From an uncultured Eubacteriales bacterium (GTDB lineage: Bacteria; Bacillota; Clostridia; Christensenellales; CAG-917): 64,000 bases of DNA. Below, one piece after another: positions 3,400 to 56,405 of this stretch. The position numbers were made by a program, and so were the translations under genes. Position 1 is the first letter of the stretch. The number at the start of each line of letters is the position of its first letter. The notes beneath the pieces were generated by a model. The model saw only the letters and a program-made list of their open reading frames with translations. It was not told where the DNA came from and ran no database searches. The DNA lies in contig URIZ01000009.1 in the NCBI GenBank assembly GCA_900548005.1, positions 2,130 to 66,129 of the forward strand, in the 5' to 3' direction.

Positions 3400-3475
3400 C
3401 GTCGCTAGGGGTGCTGAAAGGCTGAGATGATACCCTCAAACTTGTGAGTTAATGCTCGCGTAAGGAAGCAACAAC
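3400..3475 (+). promoter_or_regulatory. TPP (THI-box) riboswitch aptamer
   Basis: TAGGGGTGC...GGCTGAGA...ACCC...AACTTG..GTTAATGC..GCGTAAGGAA matches the conserved THI-box core. It lies upstream of a ThiT-type gene. Confidence 0.85.
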
Positions 3476-3514
3476 GAAAACGACGCTGGTCGTATCATAT
3501 TTGCACCGACAAGT

Positions 3515-3544
3515 TCTCCTAAGCACAAGTTAGGAGATTTTTTT
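3515..3544 (+). terminator. riboswitch expression platform: terminator hairpin that also sequesters the RBS
   Basis: TCTCCTAA-GCACAAG-TTAGGAGA followed by seven T. The 3' arm contains AGGAG, 8 nt before ATG 3545. Confidence 0.75.
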
Positions 3545-4768
3545 ATGGACATCAAAACTCTTGCGGAAAAGTTGCAGTACGTTGCGCTTTACACGGCGAT
3601 TGCAATCATTGCAAGCTGCATTGTGGTCGGTTTGCTCGTGTGGTTTTTCAAGCGTGAAAAATTCAACGATTTCAAAAAGTATGCAATCGGCATCGTCACG
3701 GGATTTGCCGCGACAATGCTTGTGGTATTCTCATACGTTATGTTCCAACGCAACATAAACAAAATGCAAGCAATGCTTTTCTATCCCATTCTTGCAATGC
3801 TCATCGTGGTGGTTGCAGGCGGCATAGCAGTGCTTATCAGCTCGCTTTTCAGCAATAAAGCCGCAAAAATCAGCTTGATAGTCACAAGCGTATTGTTCTT
3901 GGCAAGTTTTATCGCGCTCGTCGTGGTTGTATGGAAATACTACAACGCCCACTTTGACGAATTCAAAAAAGATTATCCCGGTATGAGCCTTGTCGGTATG
4001 GTTGTGTCGGCGGTCGTGATTTTGGCGGTGATGGTCGTTTTGTGGTTTGTCGGCGACAAGCGCAAGTTGAACGACACTCGCTCGATTGTTTACGGCGCAG
4101 TTGCAATGGCTCTGGCATTCGTGCTTTCGTATGCAAGACTTTTCAAGCTCCCCAACGGCGGTTCAATCACCTTTGCAAGCCTTTTGCCGCTTATGATTTA
4201 TTGCTGTATGTTCGGCACAAGAAGAGGTCTTATCGTTTGCAGTTTTTACGGCGTGTTGCAAGCACTTCAAGACCCCTATATCATTCACCCCATGCAATTC
4301 TTGCTCGACTATCCTCTCGCATTCGGACTTGTCGGCGTGAGCGGTATCTTTATGGAAAAGGGCGTTTTCAAAGAGAAAAAAATCTTGGCATTCTTGCTCG
4401 GTGGCGTGGTTGCCGTGTTGTTTAGATACATTTGCCACGTTTGCTCGGGTACGTTTGCGTTTGCAACTTACACCGATTTCAAAGCCGCGCTTGCATACAG
4501 TTTGGGCTACAACGCTACGTACGTGTTTGCCGATATGGCAATATCCCTCGTTGCGGGCAGTTTCTTGTTTGCGTCCAAGTCCTTCACGGCAACCATGGTT
4601 GCGTCCGGTGACTTGAACAAGCCCGTTCAACAAGAAGAACAACTTGTCGAAGAAGACCTTGACGACGTTGACCGCCAAATCATCGCAAATCAAGAAAGTC
4701 AAGCCCAAACGAAAGCAAGCGACAACGACGCTCAAGACAAATCGACAGACGAACAAAACAAACAATAA
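3545..4768 (+). CDS. thiT: ECF-type thiamine transporter S-component (ThiT-like) fused to an extra N-terminal multi-TM region and an acidic tail
   Basis: The C-terminal half (GGSITFASLLPLM...HPMQFLLDYPLAFG) resembles ThiT, and a TPP riboswitch lies upstream. The N-terminal ~180 aa are additional TM helices. Confidence 0.7.
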   Translation: MDIKTLAEKLQYVALYTAIAIIASCIVVGLLVWFFKREKFNDFKKYAIGIVTGFAATMLVVFSYVMFQRNINKMQAMLFYPILAMLIVVVAGGIAVLISSLFSNKAAKISLIVTSVLFLASFIALVVVVWKYYNAHFDEFKKDYPGMSLVGMVVSAVVILAVMVVLWFVGDKRKLNDTRSIVYGAVAMALAFVLSYARLFKLPNGGSITFASLLPLMIYCCMFGTRRGLIVCSFYGVLQALQDPYIIHPMQFLLDYPLAFGLVGVSGIFMEKGVFKEKKILAFLLGGVVAVLFRYICHVCSGTFAFATYTDFKAALAYSLGYNATYVFADMAISLVAGSFLFASKSFTATMVASGDLNKPVQQEEQLVEEDLDDVDRQIIANQESQAQTKASDNDAQDKSTDEQNKQ

Positions 4769-9358: not shown

Positions 9359-9420
9359 AAAAAAGCACCCCCTTCGGAAGCACTTTGCAAAAGCCGAAAC
9401 CACGGCTGATTGTGAAGTCT

Positions 9421-9508
9421 GGAGTGGATACCGCACCGCGAGTTTTCTCTTCGTCCGCTGACACCCCACGTTCATACGGCACTTAACGCGCAATATCCTA
9501 CTACTTCC
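9421..9508 (-). promoter_or_regulatory. THF (tetrahydrofolate) riboswitch aptamer
   Basis: Minus-strand GGAAGUAGUAGGAUAUUGCGCGUUAAGUG...GAACGUGGGGUGUC...GACGAAGAG..CGCGGUGCGGUAUCCACUCC tracks the crystallised THF-I aptamer sequence as I recall it (GGAGAGUAG..CGCGUUAAGUG..GAAUGGGAUGUC..ACGAAGCGAG..CGCGGUG..CAUCCGCUCC). Confidence 0.8.
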
Positions 9509-17317: not shown

Positions 17318-17339
17318 ATACTGTTTTTCGCATGTTTTT

Positions 17340-17455
17340 TTGGCTGAGTTTTTCTCGTTTTTAATCCGAGTTTAGTCCGTTTTTAGTCCGAGTGTTGCTC
17401 TCTTTTTTTTATCCGAGTTTTCGTCCATTTTTAGTCCGAATTTTATCCGCCCTTT
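17340..17455. repeat. phased T-tract / TCCG repeat block
   Basis: Seven copies of TTTTTA(G/A)TCCGAGT-like units. The TCCG cores lie at 17365, 17376, 17387, 17412, ~17424, 17435 and 17446, mostly spaced 11 nt. Confidence 0.6.
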
Positions 17456-17555: not shown

Positions 17556-18803
17556 TTATTCTTGCATGAGATAGTCACGGCAAGCGTCTTCAAGAGCTCT
17601 GCAAATCACAAATGCGTCTTCAAGGTCTTTGCCGCGCACGACAACTCCGTGGTGTCCCATAAAGCAAGCGCGAGCGTCACCGATTGCCGCCGCAACGTTT
17701 TTGACAAGTCCGTTCGTGCCGGGGAGAGCCGGTTTTGCGCACGGAATCTCTTTGCCGAGAACGTCTTGATACTTTTCGGGCACAGGCATAGCCTTGTTCA
17801 TTGCCGCAAGAATGCAGCCGTAGAACGGATGTGTGTGGATGCTTGCGGTTGTGCCGTCGTTTTGGGAAAGAAGAATCGCATGGATGCCCTTTTCGCTGGT
17901 GGCTTTGTTCGTGCCCGTCCATTTGAGCGTCTTCATATCCACTTTTGCCATTTGTTCGGGCTCGAGCATGAGATAGTCGATGCCGGACGGCGTTGCAAGC
18001 ATATAGGTGTCGTCAAGTTTGACGGCGATATTGCCCCACGTGCCTTGAACGAGATTTTCTTCAAGCAATCTGACGCCTGCGTCTTTGATTTGTTGAGCGA
18101 TTCTCTTCTCTTCGTCCGTGACGACAGCGGATTGTTTTTCTTCTTTCTTCTCTTGCGCGCCTGTTTCGGCGGCTTTTTGCTGTTGTTGATTGGTCTTGGA
18201 GTATTTGAGCTTGAAAACAACGTGTTCAAGGAAAGCGGCGATTGCGCTCATGTGTTGAGTGCCTCCCTTGTTTTCGGAAAGAATTTCCGCATTGCAAGCC
18301 TTGTCAAGCACAAGCGTTGCCGTGAACACTTCGTCAAGAGTACGTCCCGTGACCACCGCGCCGGCATCTGGGAGCAAGCACACGTTGCGTTGTCCCGAAA
18401 GAGCCGCCACAACGTCGGATGCAACGTTCTTTTGAGCGCACTTGATAGACACGCCGCACACTTGCGTAAGGTCGTCGAGAATGGGCATGAGAGTCTTTCT
18501 CTTGGACGAGAAAGCCACGGTGCTGTCGCTGTCCACGATAGCCGCCGCTCCTGCCTTTTTGTCTTGACGCACCGCGCAATAAAGAATGACCGCCGCCGCT
18601 CTGAAATTGCCTTCGAGCGTTTCGATGTTCTTGTCGTTGACAAAGGTGAGATTGTCTTCGGTGACGTTGGTGTAATCTATCTTGGGATTGGTGATGACGA
18701 TGCCGTCATCTTGTTTGACTGCGATATAACCCGATTGCAGATATTTCTTTTCTGCAAGCATACGAGCGTATTTGTTGACGTTTGCAACAATCAATTCGTT
18801 CAT
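17556..18803 (-). CDS. tandem class II aldolase/adducin-domain protein
   Basis: Two aldolase_II-like halves joined by a Q/E/K-rich linker. The C-terminal half keeps SEKGIH...SIHTHPFYG, and the N-terminal half has AAIVDSDS at the equivalent position. Confidence 0.75.
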   Translation of the reverse strand: MNELIVANVNKYARMLAEKKYLQSGYIAVKQDDGIVITNPKIDYTNVTEDNLTFVNDKNIETLEGNFRAAAVILYCAVRQDKKAGAAAIVDSDSTVAFSSKRKTLMPILDDLTQVCGVSIKCAQKNVASDVVAALSGQRNVCLLPDAGAVVTGRTLDEVFTATLVLDKACNAEILSENKGGTQHMSAIAAFLEHVVFKLKYSKTNQQQQKAAETGAQEKKEEKQSAVVTDEEKRIAQQIKDAGVRLLEENLVQGTWGNIAVKLDDTYMLATPSGIDYLMLEPEQMAKVDMKTLKWTGTNKATSEKGIHAILLSQNDGTTASIHTHPFYGCILAAMNKAMPVPEKYQDVLGKEIPCAKPALPGTNGLVKNVAAAIGDARACFMGHHGVVVRGKDLEDAFVICRALEDACRDYLMQE

Positions 18804-21219: not shown

Positions 21220-21833
21220 ATGAACAAAAGCAAGGAATAGCCCCTTGAACAGCAACCCTAATGTACTATGCGTGCATTTGTAAAAAATGCGATAAATCGA
21301 TGCATAACGCGAAAGCACCCCGAGAATGACAACCCTAATGTACTTACGTACATGAGTTGGCAGGCTCGGAGTACTTGCGTAATTAACTTTTCTCTCTCGT
21401 AAAAACGAAATAAATAGATAAAGAACAAGGAAACACCCATCCGAAACAAAACCCAACGTACTATGCGTACGTGATTTTGGAGCGGTTATTTGCTCACTAT
21501 CACACTTTCTCTCTCGTAAAAATGCAATATTGAGATGAAGAGCAAGGAAAAGCCCCTTGAACAGCAACCCTAATGTGCTGTATGCATTTGTAAAAAATGC
21601 GATAAATCGATGCATAACGCGAAAGCACCCCGAGAATGACAACCCTAATGTACTTGCGTACATGAGTTGGCAGGCTCGGAGTACTTGCGTAAGTAACTTT
21701 ACTCTCTCGTAAAAATGCAATATTGAGATGAAGAGCAAGGAAAAGCCCCTTGAACAGCAACCCTAATGTACTATGCGTACATGAGTTGATGGACAAGGGG
21801 CTTTGACAAAGCTATTCGCTCAATAGTGCATTT
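21219..21833 (-). repeat. six-unit array of the stop-codon-abutting hairpin element (two subtypes)
   Basis: Units at about 21219-21280, 21281-21398, 21399-21516, 21517-21590, 21591-21708 and 21709-21833. All share the CAACCCTAATGTAC-N-GTACATGAGTTG or AAAACCCAACGTAC-N-GTACGTGATTTTGG core. Confidence 0.8.
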
Positions 21834-24671
21834 TTACTCGGAGCGGAGAGCAATCGCCGGATCCTTCTTCGCCGCAATCCTTGACGGTATAAAACCTGCA
21901 AACATGCTAAGAAGGATGCTGATGGCAAACATGATAAGGCATTGCCACCAAGAGATAGACATAAGTCCGCTGATTTTGAAGATGGTCTTCAAGATTGCGC
22001 TGATGGCAAAGGAGAAACCAACAGAAATGACGATGCCGATAAGTCCGGAATAGCCGCCGAGAATGGCGGATTCGGCAAGGAAGACTCGGGATATATCCTT
22101 CTTTCTTGCACCGATCGAGCGGAGCACGCCGATTTCTTTTCTACGTTCAAGCACGGACGTGTAGATGATGATTGCAATCATTATGGTGGACACAATCAGC
22201 GAGATTGCCGCAAACGCAACAAGCACGCCTGTTATGGTGTTGACCATGGTGTTGACAAACTTCATAATGGTGGACAAGTTGTCGCCATAGCTGACGCTTG
22301 AACCGGTGTCTTTGTTGTATTGATTGATGAATGCGACAATCTTCTCTTTCGCCTCGAAGGACGAGCAGTAGAACTCAATGGACACAGGCTCTTCGAGATT
22401 TGCAACGCCGAGCTTTCTCATGATGGTGAGATCTTCGTTTTTGTTGTCTGCAAAGCTGATTTTGTTGCCTGCAAGCACCTTGATTTGCGTTCCGTTGTTG
22501 GTGGAATAATCAAAGTTGATGGGGCTGAGGTAGTAGTCGTAGTTGTCGTTGTCCGCCGCTTCTTTGAGAGCGTTCATTCTCACAACAGCCTCGTGCTTGC
22601 TTGCGCGCTCGATCAAAAGTTGCGTGAGCGCGGGCGTATAGCCCAGAACACCGTTGATTGACGTGACGGTCACGCCTGCTTTCGGACGAATGACGCCGAC
22701 CACTTTGACGGTGACGGGATCTCTCGAATCAATCCAGCTCTTGTTTTGTTCCGCATGATTGCGCCCCGTCCAAGTCTTGTCTTTCACGCCGTCGCCGTCC
22801 GTGTCAACCCACTTGTCCTCGGAGTCTTGTTCAAGATAATCGGCGTCCGAAATGACCTTGTATTCAAGCCCCAACAGCTCTTCTACGGACGTTTTGTAGT
22901 TTGCCCATTTCTTGTCTATGAGAGCTTTTATCACATCGTCTTGCGATTGAAGACCGAGCATGAAGAGTTGATAGTCAAGAAGTTGGTTGCTCTTGTCAAC
23001 AACAACCACCGTTTCGGTTGCGCTTGACGGCCAACGCGAGTTTTCACCCACAAGTTCGTATTGAGATTCGAGTAGCTTTTGGTTTGAGGACATCTCTGCC
23101 CATGAATTCATCATCGAACCGCCGTTTCTTGAGAACATGTTGAGCATATCGTTGAGCGACGAGCCGCCGATATCCATATTTTTTATATCGTCCGGCAACA
23201 CGTCAAGCACCGCATTCATTGTGTCGGCATAGGGGCTGACCTTCATATAGCGTTCCGCTGCCTTTTTTGCCTCTTCCAAAGTCGCTTCGGGATGTTCTTT
23301 CATATATTCGGCGACAATCTTGCTGTTGTTCGGGTCTTCCTTGAACGCATTGAAACTTACGCCGTAATTGTATTTGACAGTCGCAAGCGAGTCGTCAAAT
23401 TTTTCATCGATATACTTTTTGAGCTTGACAAGATCGTTTTCCGCAAGCAGCGTTCCGAGCTGATCAACCACTTTGCCGAGCATTTGTGCGGTGTAGATCT
23501 CATTGGTGTCGGGGTTTTCGGGTCTATCCGTCTCATTGTTCATCAACATGCCCAAAATTGCCGACGGATCGGTGTTTGTCTTGCTTATGGTCAGCGGATA
23601 GGTTGACAACGCGCTCTCTTCAAGCCCTCTGACATATCCCGCCGCGCCGTTTGAAAGGGACAGAACGAGAATTATGCCGATTATGCCGATTGAGCCCGCA
23701 ATGGACGTGAGCAGCGTGCGACCTTTCTTTGCGAGCAAGTTGTTCCAAGACAGATTGATTGCCATTGACAACTTCATCGCGCATTTGTCCGCTTTCTTAT
23801 ATTTTTTGAAACGCTCGCACAGCGTTTTTCTCTTTTTCTTGGGTTCTTCGGTCTTCTTTTCGACAATCTCGACGATTTCGTCTTGGGACAGCTCGCCCGC
23901 AACGTTGTCTCTTTCGATGTCTTCCACCGCTTCTTCCACAACGTCTTCGCCAAGTCTGTCTTCAAGTTCTTGAATCTCGTCCTTGGAATTGTACGGCATG
24001 GAATCACCCACAACTTCGCCGTCTTTCAAGTACACGATACGTGTGCTATACTCTTCTGCAAGTGAGGGGTTGTGCGTGACCATAATGACAAGCCTGTCTT
24101 GCGCCACTTCTTTGAGCAGATCCATGACTTGAATGCCCGATTCGCTGTCCAACGCGCCGGTGGGTTCGTCGGCAAGGATGATCTCGGGATTGTTGACAAG
24201 CGCACGCGCAATTGCCACTCTTTGCATTTGTCCGCCGGAAAGTTGGTTGGGCTTTTTGTTGGCTTGAGATGCAAGCCCCACCTTGTCAAGAGCCTCGAGC
24301 GCGCGACGCTTGATCTCTTCCTTCTCAACGCCGGCAAGAGTCAGGCTCATTGCCACGTTCTTGAGAATGTTCATGTGCGGAATAAGATTGTAGGATTGAA
24401 AAACAAAACCGATACGGCGGTTTCTATAAGTGTCCCAATCAACGTCGTCGTATGCCTTGGTGGACACACCGTCGATTTGGATGTCGCCGTTGGTGTAGCG
24501 GTCAAGACCGCCTATAATGTTGAGAAGCGTCGTCTTTCCGCACCCGGAAGGGCCGAGAATAGAGACGAATTCGTTCTTTCTGAACTCTATGGAAACGTTG
24601 TTTAACGCAAGGACTTTTTCTTCATCCTTGTCGATGACGTACTCTTTGGTTATATCTATAAGTTTAAGCAT
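21834..24671 (-). CDS. fused ABC transporter ATP-binding / FtsX-family permease (MacB-type)
   Basis: 945 aa. N-terminal ATPase ([35 protein letters not shown]), acidic linker, TM, large extracytoplasmic domain, C-terminal FtsX 3-TM bundle. Confidence 0.85.
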
Positions 24672-35835: not shown

Positions 35836-36305
35836 TGCGGCACTTATACACACACTCTGCCTATTCGGAGTGTACTTATAAACGGACTGTGTAGCTTAAA
35901 AGACGGAACACGAGCCGCAAGGCGGCGAGCAAATCGAGCGTCGGACTTGACGGTTGTACGAGAATGCGTGGCGTTCTGTTGCGTAGCTGCCACGCAGGCG
36001 AAGTGGCACAATAAGAGAAATGGCGTAAGTTATGTCTCGACCGAGTGTTGTCCCCCGCTACGCGGTCACCGTGGGTTCCCTTTCAGGGGGAACGGTGATA
36101 GGGAAAACACCTGAGGAAAGGGGAAAGTTGCATTTAGAGTTTCAAACACTCACCCTTGTAGAGATAAAAAACAAAGCAAAAACTTATCGGGCGAAAAGAA
36201 GATTGCGCCTTGCGGCTGGATGTTTCGACAAGCTCAACATGACAATATAGAAAAATTTGTCATTTGCGCCCGTAATATCACTCATTTTAGTGTGCAAGCA
36301 GTGCC
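35836..36305. ncRNA. candidate large structured RNA or cargo segment of unknown class
   Basis: About 470 nt with no convincing ORF and many local perfect helices (TGCGTGGC/GCCACGCA, TCACCGT/ACGGTGA, GCCG/CGGC, CACTC/GAGTG). Closed by GGCACT(35839)/AGTGCC(36300) and CACACT(35851)/AGTGTG(36289). Confidence 0.3.
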
Positions 36306-36457
36306 TGACGCAGTTCGCCAACACTTCTATGATGACCGCGCCAAACGGATGAATAACAAGAAAGGCACTGTTTGAACCAAAACCCAACGTACTGAACGTA
36401 CGTGATTTTGGAGCAAGCAGTGCCTGACGAAGTTAGTCGCCGTTTGGCGCGGTCATC
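36293..36457 (-). repeat. hairpin element copy (subtype B) abutting the lysC stop codon, plus an upstream partial right arm
   Basis: 18-bp perfect inverted repeat 36331-36348 / 36440-36457 encloses AGGCACTG...AAAACCCAACGTAC-TGAAC-GTACGTGATTTTGG...CAGTGCCT. A 17-nt direct repeat lies at 36294-36310 = 36413-36429. Confidence 0.75.
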
Positions 36458-37757
36458 GGAAGGCGTTGTAAATGGAATTGATCGCCTTCTCATAATCAAA
36501 AGTGTCTACACCCACGATTATGTTCAGCTCCGATGAGCCTTGGTCGATCATGCGAACGTTGACGTTGTTTGCGGCAAGAGCGGAAAAGAGCGTGGCAGCC
36601 GTACCAAGACGAGATGCCATGTTGTGTCCGACGGTTGCGATGAGAGAAAGTCCGCTGTGGATCTCGATGTTGTCGGCGTTGATGGACTCTTGCAAGGAAG
36701 CAAGCACTTTTTGCATTTTGCCGGCGATGTACTCGTCACGGATGACAACGGAAAGCGTGTCTATGCCGCTGGGGACATGCTCGAAAGATATGCCTTCAAA
36801 CTCAAGCACGGAAAGCACTTTTCTGCCAAAACCGATCTCGGAGTTCATCATATCTTTTTCAACGTTGATGATTGTAAAGCCCTTTTTGCCGGCGATGCCC
36901 GTGATGACCTTGTTGTTTTTGGGCAAATCCTTTTCGGACACGATCATAGTGCCGGGGTGGGACGGGTTGAAAGTGTTTTTGATGTTTATGGGGATACCCA
37001 CGCTGCGAACGGGAAAAATGGACTCCGGGTGCAAGACTTCCGCGCCCATATAGGCAAGCTCTCTCAATTCTCGATAGCTCAAAAAGTCGATGATTTCGGG
37101 ATTGTCAACGATGCGCGGATCGGCGGTGAGAAATCCGTCAACGTCCGTCCAGTTTTCATAGATATCCGCGCCTATCGCGCGAGCAACGAGCGCGCCCGTG
37201 ATGTCCGAGCCGCCGCGAGAAAACGTGGTGATTTCCCCGTTTTGATTGCTGCCGTAAAAGCCGGGAATGACCGCCCTTTCAACGTTTTCAAGACGCTTTT
37301 TGATAAGGTCGAGCGAATAGTGCATTTGCAGTTTTTCGCCGTTGAATTTGACTATATCCGCCGTGTCGATAAACTCGTATCCGAGCTTTTTTGCAAGCAC
37401 GATTGCCGAGAGATACTCTCCCCTTGACGCCGCATAGTCCGCGGTTTTGCTTGCATCTATGCCTGCCTTGACTTTGTCAAGCACAGAGTCGATGTCAAGG
37501 TCAATGCCAAGCTCGAAGACGATGTCTTCAAAGCGTTTTCGCACCACCTTGAAGGTTTCGTCACAGTTGCCTTTTTCCATACGCTCGGAAAAGCATGCGT
37601 ACAAAGCGTCGGTGACTTTGACGTCCGCCTTGTTGCGCTTGCCGGGCGCGGACACAACGATGTATCGCCTGTCCTTGTCTTGATTTATGATGTCCACAAC
37701 GCGCGATATAGTGTCGCCGTTCGCCATGGACGTTCCGCCGAATTTACAAACTTTCAT
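36453..37757 (-). CDS. lysC: aspartate kinase
   Basis: KFGGTSMANG start motif, amino-acid kinase domain and C-terminal ACT pair. Start uncertain (37757 or 37775). Confidence 0.9.
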   Translation of the reverse strand: MKVCKFGGTSMANGDTISRVVDIINQDKDRRYIVVSAPGKRNKADVKVTDALYACFSERMEKGNCDETFKVVRKRFEDIVFELGIDLDIDSVLDKVKAGIDASKTADYAASRGEYLSAIVLAKKLGYEFIDTADIVKFNGEKLQMHYSLDLIKKRLENVERAVIPGFYGSNQNGEITTFSRGGSDITGALVARAIGADIYENWTDVDGFLTADPRIVDNPEIIDFLSYRELRELAYMGAEVLHPESIFPVRSVGIPINIKNTFNPSHPGTMIVSEKDLPKNNKVITGIAGKKGFTIINVEKDMMNSEIGFGRKVLSVLEFEGISFEHVPSGIDTLSVVIRDEYIAGKMQKVLASLQESINADNIEIHSGLSLIATVGHNMASRLGTAATLFSALAANNVNVRMIDQGSSELNIIVGVDTFDYEKAINSIYNAFR

Positions 37758-37801
37758 ATTTTGCCTTTTCGCCATTATATGCGGTCAACACAAAGCGTGA
37801 C

Positions 37802-39977: not shown

Positions 39978-40097
39978 TGACGTTTGCGTTGTCGTCATTG
40001 CTTTGTCAAGCGTTGCGTTGCCGCAATCGTTTTGTCAAACGTTGCGTTGTCGGCTTTGCTTTGTCAAACGCAAAGTTTTGCAGGCATTGCCGCCGCC
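39978..40097. repeat. about four tandem ~29-30-nt direct repeats
   Basis: GTCAA(A/G)CGTTGCGTTG(Y)CG...TTGCTTT units between the membrane-protein gene stop and the cdaA start. Confidence 0.6.
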
Positions 40098-43592: not shown

Positions 43593-43741
43593 GTGCGTAA
43601 TTAGAAGAACAATAAGCCTAATGCGGCTCTCGGCGTTGCTTGCTTGCAAGCGATGCCGTTGCCGCAATGACGGCTTTTGTTCGGGCGTACATGAGTTTAC
43701 GGGAGCATGGCTCTAACGCAGTTATTCGCTAAATAGTGCGC
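43593..43741 (-). repeat. rearranged hairpin element copy with a 63-nt apical insertion, abutting the ABC ATPase stop codon
   Basis: The right half is nearly identical to the 55.4-kb copy (GTACATGAGTTTACGGGAGCATGGCTCT..GTTATTCGCTAAATAGTGCGC). The left outer-stem partner is missing. CCTAATG and GTACATGAG are separated by 43624-43686. Confidence 0.7.
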
Positions 43742-44809
43742 TCACAGAACTTTGGAGAGGAAATCGCGCAACCTCTCACTCTCCGGGTTTTCGAAAATCT
43801 GTTGAGGAGTGCCTTGTTCGAGAATTTTGCCTTCTGCCATGAAGAAGATTTTGTCGGCGACTTCACGGGCGAATGCCATTTCGTGAGTGACGATGAGCAT
43901 GGTCATACCCTTGTTTGCGACACGCTTGATGAGATCGAGCACTTCACCGACCATCTCGGGATCGAGAGCGGACGTGGGCTCGTCGAAGAGCAAGACTTTG
44001 GGGGACATGGCAAGGGCGCGCGCGATTGCGACGCGTTGCTTTTGACCGCCGGAAAGCGTGGACGGATAGACGTCGGCTTTGTCGGACAAACCGATGCTTT
44101 CAAGCAGCTTGTCGGCGGTGATTGACGCGGCCTTTTTGATCTCTTTCTTGCTTGTGAATTGCAAAGGAGCAACGCTCTTTTGAGCAAAGGGAACGGTGCG
44201 ACCGATTTTGCGTTCGAGATTTTCCACTTTGTCGGTGAGAGCGAGCTTTTGTTTTGTGAGTTTTTTGTCGTAAGTGGCAAAGGGTTTGCCGCCGACATAC
44301 TTGATTGTTTTTGTTTCGTCCCACGCAGAAACGATAGGTTTAAGTTTGGTTTTGTAGTCTTCAAGTTGCGTTTGCAGCAAAACAAGCTTTTTGTCGATAT
44401 GCTTGTTGTATGCGTTGCCAAAGGCTTTGAACCATGCGTTGTGCAAAGGCACAAAAACGTTTTTAAGGCGAGTAAGGCGCATGTTTTTCACGCCGATTTG
44501 CACTGGCGCAAGCATGATATTTTCTTTGACGGTCATGTTGGAAAACAGGTTGAATTGTTGAAAAACCATACCCATTTTTTCACGCTGACGATTGATGTCC
44601 ACCTTCAAGTCCGCAAGGTCAACGCCGTCAAAAATGATCTTGCCCGCATTGGGGTCTTCAAGGCAGTTCAGACAGCGCAAAAATGTGGATTTGCCGCTGC
44701 CACTCGGGCCGATGATGGCAACCGTTTCCCCTTCTTCGATGCTTGCGGAGATGTCGTCAAGCACGAGAAGATCGCCGTATTTTTTTGTGAGATTGTATAC
44801 GTCTATCAT
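43742..44809 (-). CDS. amino-acid ABC transporter ATP-binding protein with a ~105-aa insertion
   Basis: [33 protein letters not shown] and LFDEPTSALDPE. An extra segment lies between the Q-loop region and the signature motif. Confidence 0.9.
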   Translation of the reverse strand: MIDVYNLTKKYGDLLVLDDISASIEEGETVAIIGPSGSGKSTFLRCLNCLEDPNAGKIIFDGVDLADLKVDINRQREKMGMVFQQFNLFSNMTVKENIMLAPVQIGVKNMRLTRLKNVFVPLHNAWFKAFGNAYNKHIDKKLVLLQTQLEDYKTKLKPIVSAWDETKTIKYVGGKPFATYDKKLTKQKLALTDKVENLERKIGRTVPFAQKSVAPLQFTSKKEIKKAASITADKLLESIGLSDKADVYPSTLSGGQKQRVAIARALAMSPKVLLFDEPTSALDPEMVGEVLDLIKRVANKGMTMLIVTHEMAFAREVADKIFFMAEGKILEQGTPQQIFENPESERLRDFLSKVL

Positions 44810-46481: not shown

Positions 46482-46723
46482 TCATAACAACTTTTGCATA
46501 TTTTTGCAACTGATTTTGCATATTTTTCAAATATTTTTTTATTTTTATGCAATATTATTTTTTATTCGGTATTTTTATGCAATAACTTGCGATTTTTATG
46601 CAAATATGCAATTTTAGCGGCGGAAAATAGAAAAATTGACGATTGACTACGCCTGATATATTGATATAATATTTATGACAAACTTGTTTTGAAAACGTAA
46701 CGGTTTTCTCAAAAGGAGCAATC

Positions 46724-47530
46724 GTGCCACGCATAACCACCTTCTATTTGTCAGCGCAAGCAAAAATGCTCGAAAGAGCCAAGCGCACGTTTGAAAGCAA
46801 CTTTGACGGCGAGATAGAATTTATCGTTTTCTGCATAGACGAACCCGTGATTTCGCAAGGTGCGATAGACACGGCAAAAACATCGGATGCCGTGTGGTAT
46901 TTTGCACCGCACTTTACAAGCGCAAACGCTCCGCTGTCTGTGATACGCAAAAGTCTGTCCCTTTTTGCAAGCGTGCAAACCGTGGGAGATGAGAGTGACA
47001 GAGAGTGCTTTGTCTGCGATGAGAGCCGCTTCCCCGAAAGCTCGTTTTCATCGAGTGACGCATTCGGACGACAAGCGCAAGATATAAGCACGCTCAGCGA
47101 GATAGAGCTTGAAAAGGTGTTGCGCATCGCATACGAGCTTGCCGAGCTGTACGCGCAAGACTTGACGCTTGTTCTGCCCATAGAGCCGACCGCCGTATCG
47201 AGCCTTTGGCGCAAGATTGCCTACGACATCTCAGAAGACTATCCCTTTGTGTCCGTTGAAGTGCTAAACAGCGTGGAAGCAACCGCGCGCTTGTCAGTCG
47301 GCAACGATGCAAAAGTGTATGTGGGCATGCGCGAGCAACTTCTGCCCCTTTGCACCCTGTCCAAAACTTTGTCGGGCGCGCCAACGTCTTCGATGAGCCT
47401 TGGCGAGACCACACTCGGCTCGTACGAGTGCTTTGCAAGTGGCGATATGTTTGCGCTTAAAGCCGTTGTGCAAAACACGCTGACTTTCTCGTTCGGTCTT
47501 CCGACAAACATTGACAATATTGCAGAATAA
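46724..47530 (+). CDS. divergent isocitrate/isopropylmalate dehydrogenase-like protein (possibly non-catalytic)
   Basis: GTG start after AAAGGAG. DAVWYFAP...IRKSLSLFASVQTV and LEKVLRIAYELA...SLWRKIAYDISEDYPFVSVE follow the IDH/IMDH family order. It is only 268 aa, and I could not find the usual substrate/metal motifs. Confidence 0.4.
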   Translation: MPRITTFYLSAQAKMLERAKRTFESNFDGEIEFIVFCIDEPVISQGAIDTAKTSDAVWYFAPHFTSANAPLSVIRKSLSLFASVQTVGDESDRECFVCDESRFPESSFSSSDAFGRQAQDISTLSEIELEKVLRIAYELAELYAQDLTLVLPIEPTAVSSLWRKIAYDISEDYPFVSVEVLNSVEATARLSVGNDAKVYVGMREQLLPLCTLSKTLSGAPTSSMSLGETTLGSYECFASGDMFALKAVVQNTLTFSFGLPTNIDNIAE

Positions 47531-54181: not shown

Positions 54182-54301
54182 ATTTTGATTATATCATAAC
54201 TTTTGAAAAATGCTATGGAAAATTGTACGCGCGCGTGTTATAATCAAAAAAACGGAATGTTTTACGTTCCGTTTTGCACAAAAATTATTTCTCGTGGGAC
54301 A

Positions 54302-55180
54302 ATGAAAAAGAAAAACATCACGGCTGTCGTTGCAATTCTCTTCACAATCGCGCTGTGCGTGACGCTTTTTGCATGCGACAAAAAAGAACAAAAAATCAAC
54401 TATGCAATCGACAATTCTTTTGTCGTTCTGACTCGTGAAAATCAAGGCTCGCTCGTGTTCGAGCCCATTGCCAATGCAAAAACAAGCGCGGACGGCAGCG
54501 TTGTCGGCGACAGACTGCAATGCGAATACGGAGTGATTTTCTATGTCGGAGCAGGCGTCGAGCCGACAAAATACACCTATCTTGCCACCGCCCTTGCCAA
54601 GCAAGGCTACCTTGTAGTGATACCCAAGGCGGAGCACAACATGACTTATGCCGACTACAAAACCGCCGAAAATGCGTTTGCAACCTACCCCGACGTGAAA
54701 TTCTTCATCGCAGGACACTCTCACCAAGGCGGAGCGGCGGCGATACGGCGCGCGGCAGAAAACAAGGACAAAGTGGCGGGAGTCATCCTTCTTGCGCCCG
54801 TTGCCAACAGACACGAGCTTATCGGCGAAGACGGCAATCCCGTCAAGGACGAGAACGGAGTGACAATCTACGTTGCGGACAATCTGCTCGATTGCGCCTT
54901 GCCGATTCTTCTTGTTGAGAGCGACAACGACAAAGTGCGCACCCAAGAGCAAGCAAACGACGCAAAAGCACGGCTCAAAGACGGCTACGTGTCCAAAATC
55001 GTGCAAGGCGGCAACCACACCGCTTTTGCCGAGATAGACGTCGAAGACGATTTGCCGATCAAGTTTTTGCCAACCTACACCGCGGACATAAACGCAACGA
55101 CAATAGAACAAAAAAACGCCCAACGCACCGAGACTTGCACGGTCGTCCTTGCGTTTCTTCGCTCCGTCGTGCTCGGATAA
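54302..55180 (+). CDS. putative alpha/beta-hydrolase lipoprotein
   Basis: Start at ATG 54302 (MKKKNITAVVAILFTIALCVTLFAC lipobox). FIAGHSHQGG is nucleophile-elbow-like. Confidence 0.55.
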   Translation: MKKKNITAVVAILFTIALCVTLFACDKKEQKINYAIDNSFVVLTRENQGSLVFEPIANAKTSADGSVVGDRLQCEYGVIFYVGAGVEPTKYTYLATALAKQGYLVVIPKAEHNMTYADYKTAENAFATYPDVKFFIAGHSHQGGAAAIRRAAENKDKVAGVILLAPVANRHELIGEDGNPVKDENGVTIYVADNLLDCALPILLVESDNDKVRTQEQANDAKARLKDGYVSKIVQGGNHTAFAEIDVEDDLPIKFLPTYTADINATTIEQKNAQRTETCTVVLAFLRSVVLG

Positions 55181-55207
55181 CAAAAAAAACAAACTTATAC
55201 AACAAAA

Positions 55208-55236
55208 AAAGCGCACCGAATTGGTCGCTTTTTTTG
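55208..55236 (+). terminator. intrinsic terminator of the hydrolase gene
   Basis: AAAAAAGCGCACC-GAATT-GGTCGC-TTTTTTT imperfect hairpin with a T-run. Confidence 0.55.
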
Positions 55237-55261
55237 TCAAAAATTGTAAAGTATAAATTGC

Positions 55262-55430
55262 AAAAACCACGATAAATAGATGAAGAACTTCGTGTATGTT
55301 GTAAAAAAGCGCGATAAATAGATGAAGAACAAGAAAGAGCCACGCTATCGGCAACCCTAATGTACAAGTAGTACATGAGTTGACGGGAGCGTGGCTCTGC
55401 CGAAGTTATTCGCTATTTAGCGCGCTTTTA
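55262..55430 (-). repeat. hairpin element copy (subtype A) abutting the dehydrogenase stop codon, plus an upstream partial unit
   Basis: Intact unit at 55301-55430: arms TAAAAAAGCGCGATAAATAGATGAAGAAC / GTTATTCGCTATTTAGCGCGCTTTTA, outer stem GAGCCACGCT/AGCGTGGCTC, core CAACCCTAATGTAC-AAGTA-GTACATGAGTTG. Duplicated left arm at 55269-55288. Confidence 0.8.
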
Positions 55431-56405
55431 GTCGCAGTTTATAAGAATCTTGCCATATTGCAACGGATATTTCACACACGATTCCACCACTTGCGGAATC
55501 TCTTCAAAGTTTGCGGTTGCGCCGATGAGGCCGTCGGTCTTCACCACTTTGTTGGCAAGAAGGTTGATGGCAGAAGACAATTCTCCGATGCCGTTGCACA
55601 CGCCTTTGAGAGTGAGTTGTTTTTTGAGAACAGTGCCTGCGTCCACTGCGTGTTTTGCGCGAGTGGCATAGCCTGCGATGATGACGTCGCCTTTGTTTTT
55701 GACAAGACGGATTGCCGCATTGACGTCCACGCTTTCGCCCGAGAAGATTGCCGCCTCAGCCATTCTGCCGCCGGTGATTTCTTCCACCCTGCGTTCGAGA
55801 TTGTCATAGGTCGGGTTGAGGGTGTAGCAAACGCCCCACTTTTGCGCAAGAGCGAGCTTGTCAACGTCCAGATCGATAAGGATGGGCACGTATTGATAAT
55901 ACGTTGCCATTTGTCCGAGAATAAGACCGAGCGTGGATGCGCCGACAATGACGATATAGTCGCCTTTTTCGCGGTCGAGAGCCTCAAAAACGTTGTTGCC
56001 CATCGCGATATACTCGGTGAACAACGCCTCCTCGTCGCTTATGCCGTCGGGAAGCGCGAAAACGTTTTCAAGCGGAACGCACGCAAAATCTCTGAGCAGT
56101 CCGTCAACGTCAACGCCCATGGTCTTGACGACTTCTTCGCCGTGTTCGCATTGTTGCAAATAGGGGCTGACCACAACGCGCGATCCGAGTTTGAGACCGC
56201 TATCATCGTCCGCCTCGCTCACAAGCGCGACCGCCGAATGTCCGGGAACAACCGCATCGTCCTTTGCCATTGCCGAAAGATTGCACACGTCTTGGGAAGA
56301 AATCGCCACTTTTGCGATTTTCACCTTGACCTGACCGTCTGCTCTTTGGCTTACGTCTTCAACGAGCGTTGCGCCGTCTTCTTTGTTTATAATCCATTCT
56401 TTCAT
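55428..56405 (-). CDS. zinc-binding medium-chain alcohol dehydrogenase family protein
   Basis: GroES-like N-terminal domain (VPGHSAVALV) and Rossmann VIVGASTLGLILGQ. Confidence 0.85.
   Translation of the reverse strand: MKEWIINKEDGATLVEDVSQRADGQVKVKIAKVAISSQDVCNLSAMAKDDAVVPGHSAVALVSEADDDSGLKLGSRVVVSPYLQQCEHGEEVVKTMGVDVDGLLRDFACVPLENVFALPDGISDEEALFTEYIAMGNNVFEALDREKGDYIVIVGASTLGLILGQMATYYQYVPILIDLDVDKLALAQKWGVCYTLNPTYDNLERRVEEITGGRMAEAAIFSGESVDVNAAIRLVKNKGDVIIAGYATRAKHAVDAGTVLKKQLTLKGVCNGIGELSSAINLLANKVVKTDGLIGATANFEEIPQVVESCVKYPLQYGKILINCD

Follow-up and report, generated by a model that had tools for sequence, protein, structure and literature searches.

ERIC/IRU elements of Enterobacteriaceae and Correia/NEMIS elements of Neisseria are imperfect palindromes without coding capacity, with lengths of about 100-155 bp (about 127 bp for ERIC). 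Both occur in many copies in transcribed intergenic regions and form long hairpins in mRNA, and they are reported to influence mRNA stability or termination in a manner in which orientation matters. They possess conserved terminal inverted repeats and TA target duplications, are found in both orientations, and are not known to be anchored to stop codons or organized in long head-to-tail arrays. The MIRUs of mycobacteria are intergenic direct repeats of 40-100 bp that lack a long palindrome. They are situated inside operons, contain small ORFs, keep one orientation with respect to transcription, overlap the stop codon of the upstream gene and form tandem arrays which vary among strains. In Haloquadratum walsbyi, the SMR-A repeat of about 110 bp has prominent inverted termini and makes no target duplication (PMC3119063). 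It shows strong preference for its target, the near-terminal palindromes of IS605-type elements, and its copies are >95% identical; no related transposase is known and its mobilisation was termed 'enigmatic' (PMC3119063).

Here, a palindromic repeat of 127 nt was analyzed in a stretch of 64,000 nucleotides from an uncultured Eubacteriales bacterium (contig URIZ01000009.1; hereafter the window, to which all coordinates refer). The repeat can be counted among the MITE/REP/ERIC-like palindromic repeats, a broad class, and represents an undescribed, abundant, non-coding family of uncultured gut Clostridia (Christensenella sp. / Firmicutes bacterium CAG:475). It departs from the known members of this class in the overlap with stop codons in one orientation (89%), in ends which are variable yet complementary, and in arrays which grow at the stop codon. 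It resembles ERIC and Correia elements in size, palindromic nature and copy number but shows no sequence similarity to them, and its ends are the part which varies most. With MIRUs it shares the orientation, the variable arrays and the overlap with stop codons. SMR-A is similar in size, inverted termini, lack of a known transposase and presence of a target preference, and makes no target duplication, of which none is visible here either, whereas it is archaeal, is not located at stop codons and is without modular covariation (PMC3119063).

The repeat at the dehydrogenase gene and at other loci of the window

The window contains an imperfect long palindrome at 55302-55430, which reads in order TAAAAAAGCGCGATAAATAG ATGAAGAAC AAGAAA GAGCCACGCT ATCGG CAACCCTAATGTAC AAGTA GTACATGAGTTG ACGGG AGCGTGGCTC TGCCGAAG TTATTCGC TATTTAGCGCGCTTTTA. 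The initial annotation had recognized an intact unit at 55301-55430; the long palindrome is real, and the T which had been placed at 55301 sits at 55302. Positions 55304-55430 represent a typical family member of about 127 nt, in which two 17-nt arms enclose an inner module of 93 nt. The gene-distal arm AAAAAGCGCGATAAATA (55304..55320, + strand) carries a T-run at its gene-strand end. The gene-proximal arm TATTTAGCGCGCTTTTA (55414..55430, + strand) pairs with it at 15/17 positions and ends in 3 nt complementary to the TAA stop codon of a zinc-type alcohol-dehydrogenase-like gene (55428..56405, minus strand), which contains the Pfam domains ADH_N (PF08240) and ADH_zinc_N (PF00107). As had been noticed earlier, the element incorporates this stop codon, which is the reverse complement of 55428-55430, and the location of the codon within the basal stem holds across the family. 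In the minimum-free-energy fold of this copy, both A's of the codon are paired and the T is unpaired. The inner module (55321..55413, + strand) gave a full-length nhmmer match (E = 7.5e-26) and possesses the consensus structure and covariation of the family. It is organized as box GATGAAGAAC, loop AAGAAA, stem GAGCCACGCT, core CAACCCTAATGTAC-loop-GTACATGAGTTG, stem AGCGTGGCTC, loop TGCCGAAG and box GTTATTCGC.

Gene-sense RNA of this copy was predicted to fold into a single long hairpin of -59 kcal/mol (z = -8.67), with 0/200 shuffles as good, while the + strand folded as DNA gave -41 kcal/mol (z = -10.15), again with no shuffle as good. As no shuffle matched the fold of either strand, the complementarity of the palindrome is real; the folding of the minus-strand transcript and the shuffled controls, both of which had been put forward as checks, agree on this point. 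The U-rich run TTTCTTGTTCTTC, earlier thought to follow the hairpin, is the 3' strand within it, and it is the distal arm that ends in the true T-run, CGCGCTTTTTT. A remnant of an older and more distal unit, consisting of a distal arm AAAAACCACGATAAATA and the box GATGAAGAAC, was located at 55262..55288 (+ strand), in place of the extra partial unit annotated at 55269-55300. The unit matching this remnant is complete in the related genome CP091723 (locus L113). An ordinary A-tract/GC-stem/T-tract hairpin, read from the sequence, is present outside the element at 55206..55237, 3' of the convergent gene 54203-55180. This ordinary terminator is also downstream of the element, which counts against the element acting as the terminator here.

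The copy had been described as a singleton. Repeat and pattern searches revealed three further loci with this element, all identically oriented, making four in the window, and hundreds of copies are present in related genomes. At each of the three, the element reaches to the stop codon of a gene on the minus strand. The first (21220..21836, + strand) is an array of six units, full or partial, whose last bases are the TAA stop (21834-21836) belonging to the ABC/FtsX gene 21834-24671, and it contains a block duplication (21273-21477 and 21583-21787). The differences in arms and outer stem between the 55-kb copy and the unit at 21710-21836 of this array are as originally described, with complementarity maintained on both sides. 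A full unit with a variant core and perfect 17-bp arms GATGACCGCGCCAAACG occupies 36331..36457 (+ strand) and includes the TGA stop (36453-36455) and 2 coding nt of the gene 36453-37775; a partial older unit is situated just upstream of it (about 36283-36318). Identical-protein look-up with this gene gave no match. At 43685..43746 (+ strand), a half unit made of the proximal half of the inner module and the proximal arm lies on the TGA stop (43742-43744) of an ABC ATPase gene, and is a deletion or recombination allele. When strains were compared over 21.7-36 kb of the window, a contig break within the array was all that emerged, and no further presence/absence polymorphism was seen.

Distribution, structure and covariation of the family

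The core pattern CCCTAATGTAC-N(3-7)-GTACATGAG was found in at least 100 stretches of a species-representative genome collection. All the matches listed came from MAGs of uncultured Clostridia. At least 15 of the stretches belong to CP091723, a complete chromosome of 1.65 Mb ('Christensenella sp.'), and 'Firmicutes bacterium CAG:475' is represented as well. An nhmmer census of about 0.9 Mb of sampled loci gave 235 matches and 152 unique full copies, on which the anatomy figures are based. An ENA contig from human gut metagenome (ERZ919739 k127_95514) matched the window at 100% over 20.7 kb. No copy of the repeat was found in the viral contigs searched, and no description of it in the literature searched, which included a search with the core sequence. 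A second repeat, designated X2, of about 350-450 nt was noted as well. The 127-nt repeat matched no Rfam 15 family: at the gathering score the sole match in the whole window was a THF riboswitch elsewhere, and local E-value scans (55150-55500 of the window; 3450-4400 of locus L115) gave nothing relevant, only chance-level matches. Resemblance to hammerhead (GAAA and CUGAnGA are present), C/D-box and k-turn motifs was checked by eye and rejected, as the order and the pairing partners misfit and Rfam was silent.

In the full copies, the inner module of 93 nt extends from GATGAAGAAC to GTTATTCGC, and the flanking arms pair without gaps. The frequency of pairing is 0.84-0.91 at arm offsets 1-6, mismatch is frequent at offset 7, and pairing is 0.67-0.86 at offsets 8-16 and 0.61 at offset 17. 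From offset 19 it is at background (0.21-0.32), and therefore the ends of the unit are defined as 17 + 93 + 17 = 127 nt. The arms constitute a fixed module of 17-18 bp with an A-run, five GC-rich bp and a variable AT-rich hexamer; the degenerate consensus is 5'-nAAAAnnGCG[A/C]TAWWYR for the left arm and its complement for the right. The GC-rich segment is always 5 bp long, in a fixed register and with the consensus GCG. The hexamer adjoining the inner module occurs in about ten discrete types (e.g. TATTGA, TAAATA, TATTTA, TAAATC and CAAACA), which combine freely with the types of box, and the arm types recur at unrelated genes. The covariation of arms between copies, first noticed at the dehydrogenase locus, is true of the whole family. 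Complementarity from arm to arm is 85-100%, against about 40-50% identity between copies at variable positions, in line with the comparison proposed in the initial annotation.

RNAalifold analysis of a 69-copy alignment predicted 44 pairs, with compensatory changes in 31/44. In the consensus structure, 94.1% of cells were paired, compared with 76.0% in column shuffles and 32-39% when the partners were slid by 1-3 columns, and double-change cells numbered 541 against 175 in shuffles. The apical helix appeared invariant as an artefact of the search pattern, which fixed that helix. The inner module combines conserved boxes with covarying stems and with internal loops that are fixed. The box helix GAAGAAC/GTTATTC, paired at 6/7 positions, covaries with GAATGAC/GTCAGTC, GCATAAC/GTTAGGC and GAAGAGC/GCTATTC and retains one purine-purine mismatch across the variants. 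The 'fixed mismatched block' ATGAAGAAC/GTTATTCGC of the initial annotation is actually this kind of covarying helix.

Stop codon anchoring and turnover of the arrays

An incoming ORF (at least 80 codons) was present on the right side, antisense to the orientation of the model, in 110/152 copies and on the left in 20/152. The first base of the stop codon was at arm offsets 14-19 in 81 copies, with 34 copies at offset 17, 19 at 15, 9 at 14 and 9 at 18. Among copies with the stop at offsets 15-19, the codon was TAA in 61, TGA in 10 and TAG in 1. Among 118 arrays, singletons included, whose first unit was intact, the stop codon was in the proximal arm in 85, deeper in the unit in 20 and 21-120 nt upstream in 9, and no ORF was found in 4; the upstream ORF ends within the first unit in 105/118 arrays (89%). 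The orientation of the units tracks the gene and not replication. At loci with clearly opposite GC skew, the stop was on the usual side in 7/12 copies and on the other side in 0, local skew being a noisy proxy.

The end of the stem is fixed at offset 17-18 irrespective of the position of the stop codon. When the first base of the stop is at offset 14 (8 copies), pairing is 1.00 to offset 17, 0.88 at 18 and 0.12 at 19. With the stop at offset 15 (17 copies) it is 1.00 to offset 16, 0.94 at 17 and 0.35 at 18, and with the stop at offset 17 (33 copies) it is 0.97 at offset 16, 0.64 at 17, 0.58 at 18 and 0.36 at 19. General mirroring of the flank into coding sequence, suspected by eye at 36.3 kb, was rejected because pairing is at background beyond offset 18-19.

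Element-free orthologues help to separate host nucleotides from those of the element. Five such dehydrogenase orthologues (L103, L104, L105, L111 and L112; 72-84% identity) have the same last residue (..NCD*), followed by ordinary small terminators. The ABC ATPase of 43.7 kb has the C-terminus ..FLxKVL* in >100 homologues, down to about 68% identity; one element-free orthologue ends ..GTG TTG TGA and another ..GTG TTG TAA AAAAGTCCCCGAATCATCGGGGATTTTT. In AAAAGTCCCCGAATCATCGGGGATTTTT, a natural terminator begins with its A-tract at the stop codon and shows the A-tract/GC-stem/T-tract layout of the element's arms. Because element-free orthologues share these ends, only the outer tip of the proximal arm (3-5 nt: the stop codon and at most 3 coding nt) derives from the ancestral host, and the complement of these nucleotides is present in the distal arm. 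The outer arm had been described as locus-specific and mirroring the end of the host gene, which is correct for the outermost 3-5 nt; the arm as a whole is a fixed 17-18-bp consensus module of recurring types. Comparison of orthologous loci, recommended at the same time, does not show the arms as a pre-existing terminator. The 11-mers TGTGAGCGCAC and CCTAAGCGCAC, 'host' nucleotides included, recur identically at unrelated genes, which argues against templated copying and fits element-borne arms inserting where the target matches the proximal end. Between the orthologues L014 and L018, the position of the stop codon within the arm is shifted, and the shift is mirrored on both arms.

The arrays turn over very fast. 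An identical dehydrogenase protein is encoded on several contigs, yet the arrays behind it differ. The window type has one unit and a remnant; other types have three units, one of them with an internal 17-nt deletion; and in a further allele TAA is immediately followed by a new unit and then by one in which deletion has reduced the inner module to a short hairpin. The ABC ATPase locus shows four alleles among strains with identical protein, two of which have a common deletion junction and a different proximal half unit. In three between-genome comparisons (L113 to L117, L060 to L078 and L089 to L049), a complete new unit has been inserted immediately behind the stop codon or into the A-run, and the older unit has moved to a more distal position. 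Target-site duplication in these comparisons would be at most 2-3 nt (A or AAC), indistinguishable from the A-run of the element; none is visible, and the flanks are mirrored rather than directly repeated. Among the loci compared, no clean empty-versus-filled pair of near-identical strains was recovered, and therefore the inserted segment is ambiguous by 1-5 nt of the A-run.

Inner modules and hexamers, like the outer arms, have been shuffled between copies. The arms were retained and the inner module replaced at the orthologous sites L014/L080, where all 17 nt are kept. The window and L125 have the outer 10 nt of both arms in common and differ in hexamers and inner module, and L056/L069 is a third case of kept arms with a different inner module. 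In 62 pairs from different loci with inner modules at least 93% identical, the arms were hardly more alike than in random pairs. The arms are not co-inherited with the inner module. The family is short (127 nt), non-coding and dispersed in many copies (152 unique full copies) as MITEs are, yet its terminal arms are the most variable part and not conserved inverted repeats shared with an autonomous IS; no IS with the ends of the repeat was found in 100 sampled loci.

The arrays have a period of 125-131 nt and a single head-to-tail orientation with up to six units. Half units, deletions and chimeras are frequent, and block duplication was also found in the L064 array. In many arrays (L059, L089 and L064), the proximal arm is present only in the gene-adjacent unit. 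The distal units have an AT-rich spacer of 14-22 nt in its place, yet their distal arms have stayed complementary to the one proximal arm of the array.

Propagation, possible function and alternative explanations

The family is an abundant, structured and fast-evolving repeat with defined ends, anchored to stop codons in sense orientation and growing at its gene-proximal end. We consider it probable that it represents a non-autonomous, recombining or mobile, terminator-like hairpin which settles on stop codons in one orientation. The unit would propagate as a non-autonomous mobile or recombining element, and the hairpin itself, as DNA or RNA, would be the feature that is propagated and selected. 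Insertion may be directed to a stop codon and an A-tract by identity to the proximal end, equivalent to complementarity to the distal arm; the target A-tract would be the one which follows stop codons in this lineage. Symmetric swapping of the inner module could result from repair of breaks at the hairpin tip with other copies as template, or alternatively from copy-choice synthesis at the conserved boxes, where only recombinants able to form the hairpin would persist.

In mRNA, the element would form a terminator-like 3' hairpin with an A-tract, a GC-rich base and a U-tract. As gene-proximal units resemble a bidirectional intrinsic terminator in the layout of their arms, a role as terminator or 3'-end stabiliser is the most economical function, and judged from this layout a terminator role is plausible. 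Rho-independent (bidirectional) terminators have the same A-tract, GC-rich stem base and T-tract, and the natural example in a related genome likewise starts at the stop codon. The repeat differs from them in having about 105 nt of conserved structure in place of a 3-8-nt loop and in being multi-copy and arrayed; a simple terminator scan makes no call on it owing to this long 'loop', its limit being 3-8 nt.

Two observations count against propagation by directed insertion. The distal units without a proximal arm are not predicted by simple insertion of whole units, and targeting at the DNA level alone does not obviously explain a preference for stop codons over other A-rich sites. It appears unlikely that a mobile hairpin homes to stop codons by base pairing, with the last 4-6 nt of the distal arm either guiding it to the target (last coding nucleotides, stop codon and A-tract) or being copied from that target at insertion, and with the host stop completing the basal stem in both cases. 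If this were the case, the repeat would be a 'self-installing' mobile terminator with a targeting mode new for transposons and no element-encoded protein nearby.

The repeat might instead be a structured cis-acting RNA, either a 3'-UTR element or an sRNA, which is selected on the gene strand and used by many genes without being mobile DNA. The strong covariation, the conserved internal loops and purine-purine mismatches, the orientation following transcription and not replication, and the fixed position relative to the stop codon are all in favor of such an RNA. On the other hand, mismatches with G-U on one strand and on the other are similarly frequent (about 17 vs 23 in the main stem, and similar in the arms), and RNA folding of the two strands is about equal (-62.1 vs -58.8 kcal/mol, n = 99). 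With no clear strand asymmetry, sequence alone does not reveal which strand, or whether DNA or RNA, bears the constraint. Head-to-tail arrays, half units and chimeras are moreover common, close strains differ by whole units at orthologous sites, and Rfam is without a match. We regard a purely cis-acting RNA as unlikely, and it is compatible with a mobile element having a function. The model of the initial annotation was intramolecular (quasipalindrome) template switching, in which one arm is copied from the other together with flanking host nucleotides. It would account for complementarity between arms far above the identity between copies, for distal arms complementing the ancestral stop and 2-3 coding nt with close to 100% pairing in 25 copies, and for the matched shift of the stop position between L014 and L018. 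Against this, mirroring stops at a fixed offset of 17-18 with no decay, the 11-mers with their 'host' nucleotides at unrelated genes fit element-borne arms choosing their targets, and fold-back copying cannot yield conserved asymmetric loops. Template switching is not needed for most of the pattern, since recombination between copies with selection for the hairpin explains as much, and we consider it quite unlikely.

If the outer arms were the halves of a pre-existing host terminator, with a smaller element of hexamers and inner module inserted in its loop, locus-specific arms would require no special mechanism. The resemblance of the arms to a bidirectional terminator, the natural terminator starting at the stop codon of an element-free orthologue and the outer 10 nt shared by the window and L125 without their hexamers or inner modules are consistent with such an origin, and small mobile repeats inserting into palindromes are on record in Haloquadratum (PMC3119063). 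It is disfavoured by the fixed register and recurring arm types and must be considered very doubtful: the GC part is always 5 bp with GCG where natural terminator stems vary in length, identical outer arms occur at unrelated genes, arm-only 'landing pad' hairpins were absent from about 0.9 Mb, and element-free orthologues have unrelated or further-downstream terminators. Most improbable is a set of attC-like folded sites of an integron-like system, or of REP/BIME sites served by a RAYT-type transposase. The repeat is similar to attC sites in being an imperfect palindrome of similar size whose structure is conserved more than its sequence, in fixed unpaired bases, in position at gene 3' ends and in one-orientation arrays which gain new units at one end. 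Its ends, however, are A and T runs and not RYYYAAC/GTTRRRY, R''/R' core sites are absent, as is an integrase from the sampled loci, the units abut with no gene cassettes between them, and the copies are dispersed over many loci whose flanking genes are syntenic housekeeping genes; the attC reading was rejected on box consensus and genomic context. REPs are palindromes of 20-40 nt with a conserved 5' tetranucleotide which alternate in orientation within BIMEs and flank a RAYT gene, whereas the unit here is 127 nt and head-to-tail, and no RAYT gene flanked by units was found in the sampled loci. PATEs of IS200/IS605 type and REP/RAYT systems show some likeness in orientation-specific insertion beside a short target, lack of a clear duplication and recognition of a hairpin. 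PATE-type insertion, 3' of a 4-5-nt target and in an orientation tied to the lagging-strand template, would give tandem arrays with the newest copy next to the target, and insertion directly after TAA without clear duplication fits it. Both systems have a separate subterminal hairpin at each end and an orientation set by replication, in contrast to the single whole-element hairpin and gene-following orientation seen here. No transposase or recombinase was found for the repeat. Among the 100 sampled element-bearing loci, an incomplete sampling, integrase and Y1 transposase families were not enriched and no multi-copy transposase-like ORF was present, only ABC ATPases and orthologue groups.

The repeat explains assembly breaks in short-read contigs, many of which end 30-50 nt past the stop codon. 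As alleles differ among strains with identical flanking proteins, the arrays are high-resolution strain markers for an abundant uncultured gut lineage. The modular and always complementary stems offer a data-rich case for how bacteria maintain and correct long palindromes. If insertion is truly directed to stop codons in sense orientation, it would represent a target preference undescribed for bacterial repeats, and the units would be natural movable 3'-end hairpins which could rewire termination and mRNA stability gene by gene.

Repeat family X2 and a nested palindromic insert

Besides the 127-nt palindromic repeat, a second repeat family of ~350-450 nt, named X2, was found in about half of the sampled element-bearing loci (L001-L100). 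A copy of X2 is situated at L115:3872-4328, and the window itself possesses an X2 remnant at 35864-35962. In many loci X2 lies at most a few hundred nt from the 127-nt arrays, and both relative orientations occur. X2 starts with a GC-rich hairpin (GGGTGTGGCACCCACACCC). The Rfam scan of L115 3450-4400 gave no match for X2 at E < 0.01.

Some 127-nt units contain a nested palindromic insert of ~52 nt (TAAGGAACGAAGTGACGGAATAGCGATTGTTACGCTTTGCGTCAATCGCGTC), observed in L113 (~4296-4420) and in L211, L213, L005, L071, L075, L079 and L100. Its insertion point is constant, in the 3' internal loop of the unit. The insert could be an additional arm that only some units have, or else a separate, smaller element targeting the 127-nt repeat.

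Terminator at an element-free locus

Downstream of the ABC ATPase gene, a relative that lacks the element carries an ordinary terminator (L219:1666-1700, TAAAAAAGTCCCCGAATCATCGGGGATTTTT). The stop codon of the gene forms the beginning of the A-tract of this terminator, a layout shared with the arms of the 127-nt element.

Other features of the window

The window possesses further repeats: an intergenic cluster of degenerate 11/22-nt direct repeats (TTTTTAGTCCGAG-like) at 17331-17455, upstream of the gene at 17562; a 29-nt unit in three tandem copies (TTGCGTTGCCGCAATCGCTTTGTCAAACG) at 39984-40070; and intergenic TTTTGCATATTTTTGCAA-like motifs repeated with a 22-nt period at 46491-46603, ahead of the gene at 46724. 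A THF riboswitch aptamer is located on the minus strand at 9414-9507 (Rfam RF01831, 61.2 bits, E = 2e-11).

Contig breaks at the 127-nt repeat

Many short-read (Logan) contigs stop 30-50 nt past the dehydrogenase stop codon or within the 21.8-kb array, as observed in L121-L124 and L216. Evidently, the assemblies of this lineage are broken up by the 127-nt repeat.
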